A stretch of 64,000 nucleotides of DNA from the NCBI GenBank assembly GCA_964016885.1, contig OZ024746.1, forward strand, positions 15,810,001 through 15,874,000, in the 5' to 3' direction. This document shows, piece after piece, positions 4,655 to 41,655 of the stretch (position 1 is its first letter; each line of letters starts with the position of its first letter). A program made the translations under genes and the position numbers. This DNA is from Eledone cirrhosa. Taxonomy: Eukaryota. The notes beneath the pieces were generated by a model. It searched no databases, had not been told where the DNA came from, and saw only the letters and a list, made by a program, of their open reading frames with translations.

Positions 4655-5250
4655 TGAGTGAGAATAAGAATTGCAGCTTTTTGTGAAACTTCATTTCATA
4701 TTGCAATTGTTTTTAGAACCACAAACATGTTTATTTAACTCTACTGGGATGAAAGAATGGTATTTAACTAATGTAATGGTACGCGATGGGGCCCATCCAC
4801 AGCCCCGGCGGACAGAATGGAGAAGGCATTTCCCCGGGGGACGGCAAGGGAGACACGCTGGAAAAGCCACTCCAACTCACGGGGCTCACACCTACGGCTG
4901 GCCAGCTCAGCGCCTATGGTGGTGAGTAAGGATGTAGCCCTGGGGCTAAGGACACCAGAAGTTTCCACTGCCAGGGGAACGACCGCAAACCTGTCGGAGA
5001 GTGACCGGTATTTGAGAAGTTTGGCCCCCTCAGCCCGACGTGCAGCAGAACCTGGGTCAGTCGCAGACTGCACCAGGTTGCGGCTGCAGAAAGTGTCGGT
5101 GCAAGTGGCATCCCAGACGAGGGGTTTGCCACCGCGGAACGGGAAGATGGTCATGCCATCTGGCCTTTTGCCGTCCCCTCGATCCAGCCCCACCGGCTCG
5201 AGCTGGGAAGGGAAGCCTGCAGCTTCCAAGCCATGCTTAATGACCTCGTT
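4655..5250 (-). mobile_element. 5'-truncated non-LTR retrotransposon with a restriction-like endonuclease (CRE-like clade)
   Basis: ORF 4768-5283 reads NEVIKHGL..SQLEPVGLDRGDGKRPDGMTIFPFRGGKPLVWDATCTDT..AEGAKLLKY..VPLAVETSG..LFQRVSLAVPRGNA. This has the RPD..D..K..KY PD-(D/E)xK signature and runs without stops. It is GC- and CpG-rich compared with the flanks. Confidence 0.85.
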
Positions 5251-5320
5251 TCTATATTGATTAGTTCGGGTTTGATCATACAATCAGATTCTGACTCTTA
5301 ATCGACACTTCTTCAGATAT
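5242..5320 (-). ncRNA. Hammerhead ribozyme-like motif (type I), 3' side replaced by the CRE-like sequence
   Basis: Minus strand: CTGAAGA (5316-5310), stem II GTGTCGATTA/TAATCAATAT, GAAAC (5252-5248), then GAG-GTC. Stem I is only about 2 bp. Confidence 0.55.
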
Positions 5321-5445
5321 GAGAGTTTACATGGCCGGTCACATCTAAACTGTAAACTTATATATATGTATATATATATATGGTTTGCTTATTTGTTGTG
5401 GAATTAACTCTCTCACTCTCTCACTCTCTCTCTCTCCCTTAGTAA

Positions 5446-5730
5446 TAATTGTTTCTACTTTTGGCACAAGGCCAGCAATTATCCCAGTGTATTACTGGTA
5501 CTTTATAATGGTTTTTGATTTAGGTTAATAATTTTGATTATGGTTAACAATTTTTGGGGAGGGGAAAATCGATTAAATTGATCTCAGTCAATTACTGGTA
5601 CTCTTGTTTAGCAAAACCCTATAAGGATGAAAGGCAAAACTAACGACGGTGGAATTTGAACTCAGAACATAAAGGGACATAACTCTATGTTGCGAATCAT
5701 GTCCGACGCTCTACCAATTCTGCTAATCCA
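5446..5730 (-). mobile_element. SINE family A, diverged and partly duplicated
   Basis: AATTGTTTCTACTTTTGGCACAAGGCCAGCAAT tail, AGGATGAAAGGC core and ATTTGAACTC (reverse B-box). Confidence 0.75.
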
Positions 5731-6556
5731 GTAAGAATAAAGCATTATTATGCATGAAAGTGTTTCAACCTCCAGTTCTGTATTGCCCCCCCCCAATACC
5801 AGTAACTTGATGATAGATATATAATGTCTCAACCACAATACAATTGCTAGACACACACATGCAAGAAAACACACACACACATATAGGTATATATGTAGAT
5901 ATATTTATGTATGTATGTTTGTATGCCCAAATATAAGTATAAATGCATATTTTATTTGTTAATATATAATTACTTAAATATTATGAAATATGTACACACA
6001 CACAGACACACACACACACATACACATACACACACACAGATGTATGTGTGTGTGTGTGTGCGTTGTGTGTTTAAGTAATAAGATTTTGTGATTTTGCATC
6101 TATGTGTTTCTCTTGTCTATTCTTGAACTATATATATATATATATATATATATATATATATATATGTGTGTGTATATATATAGATAGATAGAGAGAGAGA
6201 GAGAGATAGATAGATAGATAGATAGACAGATATATGAAGAGGAAGATCAGTGGAAAGTAAGGTGAAAGCAATATAATTTTATACAATAATTTAGTACCAT
6301 CTCAAGACTCATTTTAAGTGAAAGATTCTGAGATTGTTAGAACTTCGAGGAAATTATTAATTCATATCAACTTTATTTAAAGTCATCTGTCTATATATAT
6401 ATGTATGCCCCCTCTCTCTGCCTCTCCCTCTCTCTCTCTCTCTCTCTCCATATATATATATATATATATATATATATAAAAGCAAAAATAAATGGAAGAG
6501 AAGGCAATACTTCTACAAGACTATATATATATATATATATAGAGAGAGAGAGAAAA

Positions 6557-37590: not shown

Positions 37591-38375
37591 TAACACTGCT
37601 TGCTAGCACAGCTTGACTCAGTAGTTTGTAAGTGAGATTGAACCCAAGACCTAATGACTTGCAAAAAATACCTCTTAACTACTCTACTATGTGTAAGTGT
37701 GTATGCCATGACCACATGACTACATGATCACATGACCACATGATATATATATATATATATATATATATATATATGACATGGCTAGCTAACACAGCTTAAC
37801 TAAGTAGTTTGTGATTGAACTTGATCCTGAGACCTCATGATTTGCTAAACACACCTCTTAACCATTGTACCATGTGTAAGTATGTATGCCATATATATAT
37901 ATATATATATATATATATATATATATATATATATGTATATATAACCACATGACATACACATGACATGACTAGCTAACACAGCTTAACTAAGTAGTTCGTG
38001 AGTTAGCTAAAAGTGTCAGTAGTCGGTGTAAATATGTAAGAATCATGTAAAAGAGCTCATTATATGAGATATAAGACTTGAACAGGTATATATACAGGTA
38101 TAAACAATAGTAGAACGATGCTATGGTGTAACATGTCAGAATATAATGTACCCAAGACAACAGTTAGTTATGCTGTACGTTAATAAAATTGTCGACCATC
38201 ATTTGGGGCAGAAGTGTCTCTAATTAAAGATATTTTATTAATACCTTGAGTGATATATTTTTCTAATCCAATAAGTAAAAGTGGTTTTATCAAACAATTT
38301 ATTGATCAACTGCAAGTGAAACAGTGGAATATCATTTGATGTTATTGACTGGTTGACTGTTGCCATTGCTATGTG

Positions 38376-38910
38376 ATGGTGGTGGGGTGGAGGTGGTTGG
38401 GGAATGGTGTGGAAAAGGGAGCAGGGTGGTATGGTGGTATGGTGTGGTGGAGGGTTGGGGTGGTTGGGGGATGTGGTGTGGAGATGGTTACGGCTGGTGT
38501 GGAAGAGGGAGCAGGGTGGTGTGGTGGGAGTGGGGTGGAGGTTTGGGGGTGGTGGGGTGGGAGTGGTTTTGGCAAGTGTGGAAGAGGGAGCAGGGTGGTG
38601 TGGTGGGAGTGGGGGCGGAGGTGGTTCCGGCTGGTGTGGAAGAGGGAGCAGGGTGGTGGTGGGTTGGGGTGGATGGATGAGGGCAGTTGGGGGAGGGGGA
38701 GATGTGTGGTGTGCTGTGGTGATGATGATGGTAGTGTTGGTGGCGGTGATGGTGATGGTAGTGATGGAGGTAGTGGTGATGGAGGTGGTGATGGTGAAGG
38801 TTGAGGAAGAGATGGTAGCAGTGGTAGTAGTGGTAGGGGTAATGGTAGTAGTGGTGATAATAGTGATAATGGTAATAGTGGTGGCAGTAATGGTAGTGGT
38901 GGTGATGATA
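38376..38910 (+). repeat. G-rich low-complexity region with a repeated GTGTGGAAGAGGGAGCAGGGTGGT unit
   Basis: Four copies between about 38407 and 38660, followed by (GGT)n. Confidence 0.8.
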
Positions 38911-41545
38911 GTGCCTGTCTGTCTGTCTGTCACTACAGGTGAGAAAAGACAGTCAAATGTTATTTCACCTTCATTTAGTAGTTTGTCGTAAGATATCAAT
39001 ATTATTAAACACCTTCAGCAGGATATCTCACATGTTATTAGCTCCACAGGGATATCTCACCATTCACTATCATCAGTCAATGTGTGTGTGTGTGTGCGTG
39101 TTGTGCATGTGTTTTGATTCACACCTTTCAAATTTTCCGAATTCTTCTTAAGTCAACCCTGTGAATGGGTTGGTGTTAGGAAGGGCACCCAGCCGTAGAA
39201 ATCTTGCCAAACTATGGGTTGGAAGGCCCCTTTAGTTAAATCTATGACATGACAACTTCTCCAGTATTGGTGATCTAAATGATAAACACACCCAGTATAC
39301 GCTGTAAAGTGGTTGATGTGAAGAAGAGCATCCACCCATAGAAAGTTTGTCAAGCAATGGGTTAGGAGGATCCTTCAGTTTCTGCCAAGACACAACTTCC
39401 TTGCACTTGATAGAATGCAAAACAAGATGCAGATCCCCCATCCTGCCTCAGAGGTCAGTATCCCCACTTCAGTACTGACTTGGTCTATGTAGACCAGTTC
39501 AACTCTTGCTAGCAGGGAAAGCAGCCGTAAAATTATGTTGGTGATGATGATAGAGGGTTAAAATCTTTTAAAAAGACAGAATTAGTGGTCAGCTGCTCTT
39601 TAGCGTAATGGTTAATGCACTCAATTAACATCCAAGAGATGTAGTGTTCAATTTCTTAAAGGCCACCCTGCCCAATTTTTTTACACATCCAGAGACACTT
39701 TACCAAATTTTCTCAACTATTATTTATAGTAATTGACTTTTATTATTGTGATCATTTGTGTTGGGCTGCACACATTTCAAATTTCAAGTTTTCCTAATGT
39801 TTCCAAAGTCAGCCGCTTTGATATATATATATATATATATATATATGTGTGTGTATACACACACATACACACTGTTTTGATAAGCCAGTAAAGTTAGCAC
39901 AAAGTTTAAAATATACACTAACCATTAATAGTGAATATTACATTGACTTTATATACAATATATGAGTCTTTAATACAGTGTAGTTTTAGTGTGTTTATCA
40001 CATTAACCATAAAACAGGCACACACACACACACACACATATTTATATATAAATATATATATATATATATATATATATATATATATATATATTTATATATA
40101 GAGAGAGAGAGACAGAGAGAGAGAGAGAGAGAGAAATAGACAGTCATATATATATATATATATTATATATAGAGAGAGATATAGATAGATATAGTATATA
40201 TATGTTGTTGTTGTTGTTTCTATCTGTCTGCTGTAGCCCTAAATGATGGTAGAGAGATAACTGATTGAATGCATCATTCAATCACCATTTCTAGCTGTGA
40301 TCATCACATTGATTTGGTCATGGTTCCTAACATTTATGAATTAAAGCATGTGTAGTCCTGCTTTAATGATGACCAAGAGATTAACTGTTGCAAGATTTTC
40401 ACTGTCTACATTCAACATTGATGATTTCTCATTGGTTGTTTCATAATTGTGGTTCCTGCTGCTGTTGTTTGTAAGAGGTGTTGATGATGGCAGCCATATT
40501 GTTGATGGCAGCCATGTTTATGATGGTGGCCATGTTGTTGTTGACGGAGGCCATCTTGTTGTTGATGACAGCCATGTTGTTGATGGTGGCCATGTTGTTG
40601 ATGGCAGTCATTTTGCTGTTGTTGGTGTTGTTGTTGTTGATGGCAACCATTTTGGTGTTGTTAGTGTTGTTGTTGGTACTTCATAATGATTGGCCATAGG
40701 AGGATAAAACTGATCGTTTTGTTTCTAGTTACATCAATCACAACTAAACACCACCACTACAACCACAACAACAACAACACTACACACCAACATCACACCA
40801 ACAACACCACCAACACCACTGCCACCACCACCACCACAACACCACACACAAACAACACCACCACCACCATCACAACACCACACACAAACAACACCACCAC
40901 CACCATCACACCAACACCACCGATACCAACACCACCGCCACTGCCACAACACTACTACACACCAACATGCCCCCCCACCACCACCACAATAACTACTATA
41001 TATACACACATATATACACACACATGTATACATATATTCACACACATACACATACATGCACTCATACATACATACATACATAAGTACATACACACATACA
41101 TACATATGCACATACATACATGTATATTCATATACATACATACATACATACATGTATTCCTATATTCATGTTTGTTTATGTTTACAGTCTAAAACCAGAG
41201 TTGTTTATATGTCCTTTATATATCTACAATATGGCAGCTTCATAATTGCGATTAAATTATTATGGTCATTTGCGCTGGGATGCACACATTTCAAATTTTA
41301 AACATTCCCAATGCTTCCTAAGTCAACCAGACTTTCCAGGGATAACTTGAACTGTTAAGGTATATTATACTTGGTCATGTCAAATATTTATAAAACATTT
41401 TGTATTTTATCTGATGATAGCATACCAAAATTTTGGTACCCTTAAAATATATATAATTGAATAAATATGGTTTTATAAATATAGTTTCAATTTATTTAAA
41501 ATTATTGTATATATATATATATATATATATATATATATACATACA

Positions 41546-41655
41546 TAGCTGAGAGAAAGGAGTACTCAATACTGAAGTATATCTGATGACCCTGAGATAA
41601 ACAGGCAAAACTCCAGAGTAACAAGACTCACTATTCAACCTTAATAAAATGAGTA
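41546..41655 (+). mobile_element. Short hammerhead-like insert within (TA)n
   Basis: CTGATGA (41583-89)-cCCTG agataaa CAGGc-aAAAC-TCCAGA-GTA. G12 is mutated and stem I is poor. Confidence 0.5.

Follow-up and report, generated by a model that had tools for sequence, protein, structure and literature searches.

The window analysed here, a 64-kb stretch of the Eledone cirrhosa genome (contig OZ024746.1), carries short inserts among (TA)n tracts in which an initial annotation had noticed hammerhead ribozyme layouts at twelve sites, and it raises the question of what these inserts are and how they enter (TA)n DNA. Using a type I descriptor (stem I of at least 4 bp, CUGANGA, stem II of up to 250 nt, GAAAC, a spacer of 2–10 nt, GUH), we recovered four exact cores in the 64 kb, at 23085–23219 (+), 29523–29594 (+), 29435–29364 (−) and 33982–33911 (−). 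These are the four sites that the initial annotation had called intact (23078, 29519, 29360 and 33907), and they withstood the shuffling proposed there as a check, as 60 local dinucleotide shuffles gave a mean of 0.03 cores and a maximum of 1. A stricter descriptor, in which an unpaired base 3′ of stem II was forbidden, found no core in the 64 kb. All four cores have the CUGANGA, GAAA and UH elements and the stems I and II of the minimal type I hammerhead of Penelope-like elements (PLEs), from which the remaining eight sites depart. The palindromic spacer (loop 3) was present in all four, although the descriptor did not require a palindrome. In 400 kb of arbitrary positions, 29 exact cores were found against 0.4 by chance, and loop 3 was palindromic in 16 of them (null 0); the density of about 57–72 exact cores per Mb extrapolates to about 2 x 10^5 per genome. 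The hammerhead motifs in the window are real.

The twelve sites represent about eight families (A–H), not twelve. Several unrelated families do exist, as had been claimed, and their primary sequences are unrelated, but a structured cis-element common to families, described below, had been missed. Nor are the inserts unique: each family search gave 341–2354 first-look candidates (25 for the subfamily of site 24881). Some inserts lie between (TA)n tracts, whereas those at 5242, 6557, 26370 and 27813 have a tract on a single side. The G10.1–C11.1 pair is missing in A and D (C.A), E (U.U), H (A.A) and C (C.C), and present in G.

The eight sites regarded as partial or mutated proved to be copies with damage, truncation or a variant core; they represent about six further families, seen as short truncated ends only (B, C, E, F, G and H). 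This part of the initial annotation held, except for the details of 5242. At that site CUGAAGA and GAAAC are kept, but the GTC assigned to the motif is unrelated flanking DNA, and the family continues differently. The copy, of family H (5248–5362, −), is interrupted after GAAAC; what remains of the family end appears to be located at roughly 4660–4712 (−). The core is kept in 8 of 15 relatives. The family E copy at 6553–6662 holds a minus-strand hammerhead with C3>U (6594–6600; site 6557) and an inverted tail piece with a hairpin 3′ arm at 6609–6617 (+); the exact core is kept in 7 of 15 genomic relatives. The family B insertion (23536–23722, +) has an inverted E1 end at left, the 3′ half of the hammerhead only (23609–23631), as in 25 of 25 loci, and a tail hairpin whose loop is deleted (23657–23671). 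An older B-related copy (24700–25072, +) comprises a core 5′ half at 24881, a damaged GAAA at 24958 (GAAAC>GAAAT) and a tail hairpin at 25001–25024; its subfamily, older and related to B, has a full core. Sites 26370 and 41583 belong to one family, C, in which 1 of 25 loci has the exact core: the copy at 26341–26480 has a hammerhead 3′ half (26373–26386, −) and a damaged inverted tail hairpin (26442–26461, +), and that at 41545–41655 has an inverted tail piece with a hairpin 3′ arm (41564–41572, −) and a core at 41583 with G12>A. The old family F copy (27813–27965, +) has a decayed tail hairpin (27884–27907) and a U4>A core change that the family consensus shares (none of 15 exact). Family G (34785–35070, +; core at 34888) shows a U3–A8 core variant in 14 of 15 loci, a G–C at the base of stem II, a CG spacer and a weak stem I; no bulged hairpin was seen in the flanks examined, and it is probably a PLE of another kind.

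The link to PLEs drawn by the initial annotation was supported by family D. Its insertion at 22845–23292 consists of an inverted tail-bearing piece (22845–23066), with a bulged hairpin 1 carrying a 65-nt loop (22897–22977, −), and a direct piece (23078–23292), with the exact type I core at 23085–23219 (+) and its 116-nt stem II domain. Both pieces come from an intact Hydra-clade PLE: they derive from its pseudo-LTR, to which the window copy is 98.6–99.5% identical. For family D, a coding reverse transcriptase (RT) + GIY-YIG element sharing these ends, of the kind suggested at the outset as a search target, was found. Every one of the 63 scored matches showed 99–100% identity to a Hydra-motif frame, in most cases open over 830 codons, and the parent is apparently intact and recently amplified. 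Head-to-tail repeats of its unit have a period of about 6.65 kb. The single 830-codon ORF contains YRDD and a YIG motif, as expected of an RT with a C-terminal GIY-YIG domain, together with RWR, DKT, CNCRNKANC, CRLC and CNH. The published Hydra-clade characters are RWK and DKT, a CxCx5C linker, CxxC and CxH around conserved E and N, and no CCHH (PMC8557442), and the translation agrees with these motifs; by eye the protein resembles published Hydra proteins. A Pfam search of the protein gave no significant match, while weak GIY-YIG matches were obtained in 8 of 41 aligned relatives, and the profile matched a retron RT at E 0.0066. Against a Neptune-like RT encoded in this genome, identity was only 23% across 247 residues. 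The hammerhead is on the sense strand near the 3′ end, the core lying about 3.6 kb past the stop codon in L106/L107 and L111 and, in tandems, 443 nt ahead of the next open frame. Family D inserts into (TA)n, in line with the targeting initially claimed and with the Hydra clade, whose general size of <3 kb, a descriptive rather than diagnostic trait, is exceeded by the unit of about 6.65 kb. On these motifs, the D parent is best assigned to the Hydra clade.

The copies at 29360, 29519 and 33907 belong to one family, A, a 552-nt non-coding unit with the insertion architecture of PLEs. The insertion at 29177–29660 is flanked by (TA)n tracts and joins an inverted 5′-truncated copy, with end E2 at left, to a direct 5′-truncated copy, with end E1 at right. 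It carries exact cores at 29364–29435 (−), with a 51-nt stem II domain and a palindromic 6-nt spacer, and at 29523–29594 (+), and bulged hairpin 1 in the tail (29263–29286, −). A whole unit plus a partial repeat occupies 33838–34448 (−), with its fixed end E1 in (TA)n near 33838, a core at 33911–33982 (−), hairpin 1 at 34361–34384 (−), 9 nt after E1, and hairpin 2 at 34243–34267 (−), 8 nt after E2. The longest ATG-started frame is 59 codons. Core-to-core spacings of 536–556 nt were observed 18 times across 30 loci, some overlapping, with up to three cores in a row; A thus has the non-coding tandem unit with one type I hammerhead per unit that characterizes non-LTR retrozymes. Stem I is 4 bp, and the minimum-energy structure of the isolated hammerhead is not the active shape. 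Between A subfamilies the hammerhead stems show compensatory changes. A-like DNA was found in 40 of 288 loci of this genome, 3 of which also held a Hydra frame, separated from it in the two inspected (L107, L234) by a (TA)n tract or other elements. Of 1324 candidates for family A the best 40 were scored, and a coding parent could exist outside these. From its sequence, family A would be described as a probable non-autonomous passenger that keeps only the hammerhead and two hairpins. The term non-autonomous in the initial annotation therefore suits A, a closed unit with no long frame, but not 23078, the truncated end of a coding PLE.

The element that connects these families is a bulged hairpin, NYUC-stem-loop-stem-UU-GARN, which lies behind the hammerhead in most window families. 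Families A, B, D and E share it, their versions differing by compensatory changes, and it is also visible in relatives of C and F. It occurs twice in A and D, the only families for which the complete unit is available; hairpin 2 was seen in these two only, since the copies seen of B, C, E and F all stop at or before E2. With a structure descriptor, 81 hairpins were counted in 400 kb against a background of 19–30, while a loose search on the arms gave many unpaired chance matches. We further examined 63 hammerhead-downstream regions drawn from 96 Hydra-clade loci of other sources (metagenomes), using a sequence-only pattern: 54 contained the hairpin (null mean 9.5, maximum 18) and 30 contained two (null 0.6, maximum 3). 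Upper-stem positions left unconstrained by the search pattern were paired in 45, 42 and 38 of 55 distinct hairpins (shuffle means 36, 25 and 23; maxima 44, 38 and 36), a shuffle test inflated by kinship among loci, and one slid control came near the observed value at pair 2 (34 vs 42). Loop lengths span 3 to about 105 nt. Sequence conservation is strong in the lower stem and the three bases that follow, which read ACT in 56 of 72 hairpins. Counts of G–U and C–A favour neither strand, and the covariation fits single-stranded RNA or cDNA alike.

Insertion ends fall a few bases before these hairpins: 9 and 8 nt before hairpins 1 and 2 in the A insertion, 7 and 8 nt in the D insertion, and 5–11 nt before a hairpin at 10 of 16 ends mapped in other loci. 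At the other 6 no hairpin matched the pattern, though about 3 had an imperfect one by eye. Among 46 loci with both ends resolved, of 114, we counted 44 E1/E2, 0 E1/E1 and 2 E2/E2 pairings, the B and D queries containing one end; in family A, where the query contained neither end, E1/E2 pairing was found in 12 of 12. At one locus (L010) an A-derived E2 end is joined to a B-derived E1 end in one insertion. The ends show TA microhomology to the target (3–5 nt), and insertion copies run across the predicted hammerhead cleavage site. The hairpins likely tell the element's own enzyme where copying starts.

We therefore consider it probable that the hairpins behind the hammerhead set two internal RT start sites, the window copies being Hydra-clade PLE ends, coding in D and passenger in A. 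The RT-endonuclease protein would nick both (TA)n strands and bind the element RNA at both hairpins. One strand would then prime a cDNA at E1 and the opposite strand another at E2, aided by the TA microhomology. Head-to-head joining of the two truncated cDNAs would leave the inverted copy and the tail, the latter being the stretch that separates the hairpins. For family A, copying would occur in trans. Because copies span the predicted cleavage site, the template should be an uncleaved multimer or a re-ligated circle; the hammerhead probably cleaves tandem transcripts as a dimer via its palindromic loop and is probably dispensable for the insertion step. A more tentative extension, to which we give slightly less than even chances, is that the twin hairpins are a clade-wide duplicated RNA anchor, each holding one RT-endonuclease protomer, with the template start 7–9 nt upstream. 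With two anchor hairpins, one RNA would prime twice, once per nicked (TA)n strand. By analogy, such an anchor may be likened to the telomerase RNA elements that define the telomerase template.

Other readings of the same data were weighed. The strongest competitor, though we judge it clearly less probable, is that family A is chiefly a non-LTR retrozyme, whose hammerhead-cleaved transcripts would be ligated into 552-nt RNA circles, from which rolling-circle reverse transcription would make more-than-unit copies. Such a route fits hairpin-directed priming too, yet makes cleavage essential. The closed unit, the tandems of up to three cores, the copies crossing the cleavage site and the compensatory stem changes between subfamilies all suit it, and the model is published (Cervera 2014, PMC4209133; 2020, PMC7229834; Li 2026 preprint). 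However, the same junctions arise from tandem genomic copies transcribed without cleavage, the family F consensus has a changed core, hammerhead mutants did not affect Poseidon PLE insertion in vitro (PMC11167929), and 8 of 9 retrozyme dimers showed no cleavage (Li 2026, 10.64898/2026.07.22.740005). It is rather unlikely that the hairpins act as DNA, the GIY-YIG endonuclease recognizing the cDNA or pseudo-LTR and cutting a few bases upstream, so that E2 or both ends are cut sites. Endonuclease-mediated resolution is how Craig 2021 (PMC8557442) accounts for the tail, and the D. virilis endonuclease, as cited in Frangieh 2024 (PMC11167929), required tail sequence to recognize plasmid DNA; the conserved lower stem with its following ACT and the neutral wobble counts agree with this. 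Recognition of double-stranded sequence leaves the upper-stem covariation and the range of loop lengths unexplained, however, the ends have TA microhomology to the target, and for the single PLE that has been assayed, RT was found to start at both boundaries of the tail (PMC11167929).

We regard as improbable the proposal that all window copies, A included, are 5′-truncated ends of coding PLEs and that an independent non-autonomous family is absent. It holds for D, and B, C, E, F, G and H are represented by short ends only, but the head-to-tail junctions of A show it to be a closed 552-nt repeat, which has no long frame, and truncation of a coding tandem cannot yield the ORF-less link of about 285 nt from E2 to the hammerhead in many dispersed copies. 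That AT-rich, repetitive DNA yields these motifs by chance is close to inconceivable and was ruled out by the shuffles: loose arm matches are indeed many, and the structure descriptor has a background of its own, but core and hairpin counts exceed their controls in the window and in the 400 kb, and the hairpin holds a fixed position beside Hydra frames in unrelated sources.

PLE reverse transcriptases are the closest retroelement relatives of telomerase, and the twin hairpins address how a PLE chooses its template and start site and where its tail and inverted copy come from. They are a specific, mutable candidate RNA element with a predicted spacing rule, and an assay could draw from this genome both an enzyme that is apparently intact and recently amplified and, as minimal substrate, the 552-nt unit. 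The hairpin also places orphan hammerhead repeats in a PLE clade without protein sequence. If the anchor exists, it would account for the PLE tail and inverted copy and would be the minimal signal that lets sequence-unrelated non-coding hammerhead elements ride on a PLE.

Hammerheads alone are ordinary here: hammerhead-bearing, (TA)n-targeting Hydra-clade PLEs have been published, one octopus family included (Hydra-1_Obim; Craig 2021, PMC8557442). Like these C-terminal EN+ PLEs, our elements have a single RT + GIY-YIG frame with the clade motifs, a hammerhead near the 3′ end, a (TA)n target, partial tandems, an inverted truncated copy and a tail, and the 1x1 mismatch at the stem II base of most families is already in File S2 of that paper. 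Family D differs from most published members (<3 kb) in its 6.65-kb unit, microsatellite-like 3′ UTR of about 3.6 kb and 116-nt stem II domain. Non-autonomous Hydra families and twin hairpins go unmentioned there ('hairpin' and 'stem-loop' have 0 matches in the main text), and no description of the hairpins was found in the literature searched or in Rfam; in Hydra-clade PLEs they appear to be new. They can be read by eye in 3 of the 6 new Hydra consensus sequences of that paper.

The minimal type I PLE hammerheads of Cervera and de la Pena 2014 (PMC4209133) share the CUGANGA/GAAA/UH core, the short palindromic loop 3, the many unrelated families per genome, opposite-strand pairs 100–700 bp apart and the U3–A8 variant, whereas most families here lack the G10.1–C11.1 pair and several have 50–116-nt stem II domains; against the extrapolated core number here stand about 9,000 in Xenopus tropicalis, obtained with a different descriptor. 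Family A resembles non-LTR retrozymes (PMC7229834; Li 2026) in its short non-coding tandem unit and type I hammerhead, and in being probably PLE-derived and PLE-moved, but departs from them in its PLE inverted copy and tail, its strict (TA)n target and the cis-elements of one PLE clade. The closest biochemical parallel is a Poseidon PLE of another clade, PAc of Anolis carolinensis, in which RT in vitro starts at two internal sites bounding the tail, both strands are cut and hammerhead cleavage is unneeded (Frangieh 2024, PMC11167929). The AT-rich target, the cutting and extension of both strands, the pseudo-LTR hammerhead and the two internal starts are alike; in the elements described here, a conserved hairpin of its own follows each end after 7–9 nt, and genomic insertions combine one end of each kind.

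The hammerhead motifs reported in the initial annotation of the window, G000:C6:15810001-15874000, are real and of a known kind. With a type I descriptor, the same four cores that it had called intact came out as exact matches, where 60 block-wise dinucleotide shuffles averaged 0.03. A sample of 40 arbitrary 10-kb genomic stretches contained 29 exact cores compared with 0.4 by shuffling (23 when a single seven-unit array is scored once), and rough extrapolation to the 3.0-Gb assembly gives 2 x 10^5 exact cores per genome. The spacer was perfectly palindromic in 16 of the 29, a property that the descriptor does not require. 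Compensatory stem changes separated the hammerhead subfamilies, stem II of A-like copies being GCAAUG/CAUUGC, GGAAUG/CAUUCC or GAAAGG/CCUUUC. A strict descriptor gave no match in the window, because it leaves no room for an unpaired base on the 3' side of stem II. Among the 150 of 620 Rfam matches listed for the whole window, only microsatellite matches to miRNA-like models appeared, and Rfam returned neither a hammerhead nor any other credible match for the family A unit and six Hydra loci. The 1x1 mismatch at the base of stem II was considered as a novelty and rejected, being already present in File S2 of Craig 2021 (PMC8557442). Elsewhere in the window, TA/CA/TG microsatellite arrays at 51600-57200 gave many sub-threshold Rfam miRNA matches, which are artefacts of self-complementary repeats, and a long G-rich simple or minisatellite repeat with a GC skew near 0.7 occupies 6900-21000.

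The 12 annotated sites resolve into about eight families of hammerhead-bearing Penelope-like element (PLE) ends: A (29360, 29519 and 33907), B (23609, with an older relative at 24881), C (26370 and 41583), D (23078), E (6557), F (27813), G (34888) and H (5242). BLAST among them showed clear likeness only between B and its relative and between the two C copies, with weak, short matches of A to G and of the B relative to C (E 0.003-0.004). Family G (34888-34925) is probably a PLE of another clade; it has a U3-A8 core variant in 14 of 15 loci, together with a CG spacer and a stem II that is G-C paired at its foot. The family H copy (4660-5362) is apparently split at GAAAC by about 535 nt of unrelated GC-rich insert, and an array of 4.4 kb on another contig (C10) that contains family H sequence was set aside as a local duplication without a PLE frame. 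Family B copies (23595-23722 in the window, and loci L056-L080) cluster at one 5' boundary, lying immediately 3' of a T-rich tract and ahead of the hammerhead's GAAA half; a repeat at this boundary might base-pair with the stem III 5' arm and so compete with that stem. At one genomic locus (G000:C28:7316301-7321430), A-like, E and D hammerhead families stand in a row with a (TA)n tract between each.

A short motif that recurs in B, C, E and F tails proved to be the 3' arm of a bulged hairpin (NYUC-stem-loop-stem-UU-GARN), in which a 4-bp lower stem is topped by an upper stem and a variable loop, with 2 nt bulging out on the 3' side. Its arms are ACUCUAC/GUAUUGAGU in B and C and ACUCUGC/GUAUUGAGU in E. 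Families A and D form the same fold with compensatory changes, the arms being GUUCUGC/GCAUUGAAC in A and ACUCUGU/ACAUUGAGU, around a 65-nt loop, in D. Both have a second hairpin further downstream. In the predicted fold of an A monomer, hairpin 1 had pair probabilities of 0.75-0.9, and hairpin 2 had 0.93-0.95 in its upper stem and about 0.55 in its lower stem, where the outermost position is mismatched. In a D element (L287, G000:C6:49530000-49539999), the two loops have grown to about 65 and 105 nt and the stems are retained. One relative of H carries a long-loop hairpin by eye, and no hairpin was seen in family G. A sequence pattern for the hairpin occurred 24 times in a 400-kb sample versus 1.8 times in shuffles, about 5 of the 24 looking like chance; a search for the arms that ignored pairing was too loose for statistics.

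On the element sequence, the hairpins lie a few nucleotides past the insertion ends. Mapping on templates placed the start of the (TA)n tract at one of two ends: E1, which precedes hairpin 1 by 9 nt in A and by 7 nt in D, and E2, which precedes hairpin 2 by 8 nt in both families. With overlapping loci scored twice, E1 accounted for 23 of 38 A ends and 31 D ends, and E2 for 13 of 38 A ends and 19 D ends; another 114 matches that looked like D ends, at template positions 287-300, were removed as TA-rich low-complexity sequence. TA microhomology at the ends was 3-5 nt. At other loci, 10 of 16 mapped ends lay 5-11 nt before a hairpin, about three before an imperfect one and three before none. The two ends were also paired. 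Across families A-E, both ends could be resolved in 46 of 114 non-overlapping loci (six overlapping loci omitted), with 44 E1/E2, no E1/E1 and two E2/E2 pairs, one of the latter (L059) being E1/E2 by eye. For family A all 12 pairs were E1/E2, and the query contained neither end. One locus (L010) joined an A-derived E2 end to a B-derived E1 end without a TA tract, the sole direct cross-family junction among 288 loci.

The hairpin was examined independently in Hydra-clade loci from other sources. A profile of 41 Hydra-like proteins retrieved 77 loci from metagenomes and a further 19 from prokaryotic assemblies, mostly MAGs (L366-L384), the latter likely host-animal contamination; no such relatives were found in viral contigs. 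When hammerheads were required to have a spacer longer than 2 nt, 81 remained, of which 63 had at least 90 nt downstream and 18 did not. A sequence-only pattern, in which the lower stem and bulge were fixed and pairing above was not required, occurred in 54 of these 63 regions (null mean 9.5, maximum 18) and twice in 30 (null 0.6, maximum 3). Its distance from the cleavage site was about 36-61 or 94-125 nt. Grouped by family, hairpin 1 was present in 32, hairpin 2 in 23 and both in 19 of 43. The unconstrained upper pairs formed in 45, 42 and 38 of 55 distinct hairpins, where shuffling gave 36, 25 and 23 on average and at most 44, 38 and 36, relatedness being a factor that inflates such shuffle tests; controls slid along the sequence gave 1-25, except one of 34 at pair 2. 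Pair 2 itself was A-U in 19, G-C in 10, U-A in six and C-G in three. The hairpin was also visible by eye in three of the six new Hydra consensus sequences of Craig 2021, from a coral and two sea-cucumber families, one of them with both hairpins; a copepod family has a variant, and the remaining two appear to end before the tail. The 3' arm occurs six times in the whole 584-kb supplement of that study, four being the Hydra hairpins and two lying in non-Hydra sequences where no hairpin was visible within the 80 characters shown.

The initial annotation described these elements as non-autonomous, which holds for family A, a closed non-coding unit, and fails for family D, the terminal part of a coding element. 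In longer D copies, a common upstream sequence leads, through about 3.6 kb of microsatellite-like DNA (a TA/TG/CA 3' UTR in L287), to an RT-endonuclease frame. This protein was 99-100% identical in 63 of 63 scored matches, most with an open 830-codon frame, and several units stand head to tail with a period of about 6.65 kb. The window copy is 98.6-99.5% identical to the parent pseudo-LTR. Pfam did not recognise the protein, so the RT and GIY-YIG assignments rest on motifs, weak matches of relatives and likeness by eye to published Hydra proteins. Its translation carries the Hydra-clade motifs as given in Craig 2021, whose supplement already contains an octopus Hydra family (PMC8557442).

Family A has a fixed 3' end in (TA)n and 5'-truncated partial tandems, with inverted truncated copies ending about 120 nt further downstream (30 loci). 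Its cores are spaced 536-556 nt apart and its longest ATG frame is 59 codons. A-like DNA was present in 40 of 288 loci of this genome, three of which also held Hydra coding DNA; in two of these, (TA)n tracts or other elements lie between A and the coding DNA, and in the third (L025) a (TA)n tract adjoins the A end on the coding-DNA side. At one of the first two (L107), the A-like copy lies 2.6 kb from a Hydra fragment and was rejected as linked, since a (TA)n tract and other repeats intervene. Scoring covered 40 of the 1324 first-look candidates, so family A may have a coding parent. A separate tandem array (L140, G000:C11:15000001-15010000, at 1-3700) is retrozyme-like, with a 482-492-nt non-coding unit, seven minimal hammerheads and internal (TA)n, and none of 15 matches had a bulged hairpin behind this type of hammerhead. 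We also considered as a partner of family A a highly amplified PLE of the same genome (L284, G000:C5:17086500-17096499, at 1863-8948), which we take to be Neptune-like from its CxxxxCxxC linker. Its 784-codon RT and GIY-YIG frame overlaps a 455-codon frame upstream, for which Pfam gave no match, and its tandem period is 4.73-4.80 kb (150 scored matches, 94-100% identity). No sequence is common to it and any of the window families, and between its units it showed neither a hammerhead, by our descriptor, nor a bulged hairpin; it was rejected as the partner, and for clade specificity of the hairpin it is a thin control.

Published work already covers hammerheads at PLE ends, (TA)n-inserted Hydra elements and the derivation of retrozymes from PLEs as non-autonomous elements (Craig 2021, PMC8557442; Cervera 2020, PMC7229834; Li 2026, bioRxiv 10.64898/2026.07.22.740005). 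Full-text literature searches, judged mostly from the matches as listed, gave no description of twin hairpins or of E1/E2 pairing, and neither did word searches of the Craig 2021 main text and the Frangieh 2024 supplement text, or Rfam; an earlier mention of the motif or of long stem II variants could stand in Lunse 2017, Arkhipova 2017, Repbase notes or the Frangieh supplementary figures. The part worth pursuing is the hairpin, duplicated and covarying, from which both ends of an insertion are predicted throughout the Hydra clade.

In a Poseidon PLE, reverse transcription starts from two internal sites, the tail being the stretch between them; both target strands are cut and extended, the protein is a predicted dimer, and its binding motif has been bracketed and not defined (Frangieh 2024, PMC11167929). 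For the Hydra clade we infer that each hairpin would hold the RT at a set distance on the 3' side of a start site, that the two start sites may serve the two nicked (TA)n strands, and that the two truncated cDNAs would then meet head to head. The main rival is recognition of the hairpins by the endonuclease at the DNA level, and the present data pick no strand. Family A, which keeps exactly the hammerhead, hairpin 1 and hairpin 2, fits a minimal passenger. Because copies of A and D cross the site of predicted cleavage, which lies 60-80 nt upstream of E1, the template would be an uncleaved multimer or a ligated circle. Insertion of that Poseidon PLE is unaffected by hammerhead mutants (PMC11167929), and the palindromic loop 3 of the present elements is consistent with the dimer cleavage set out in Cervera 2014 (PMC4209133).
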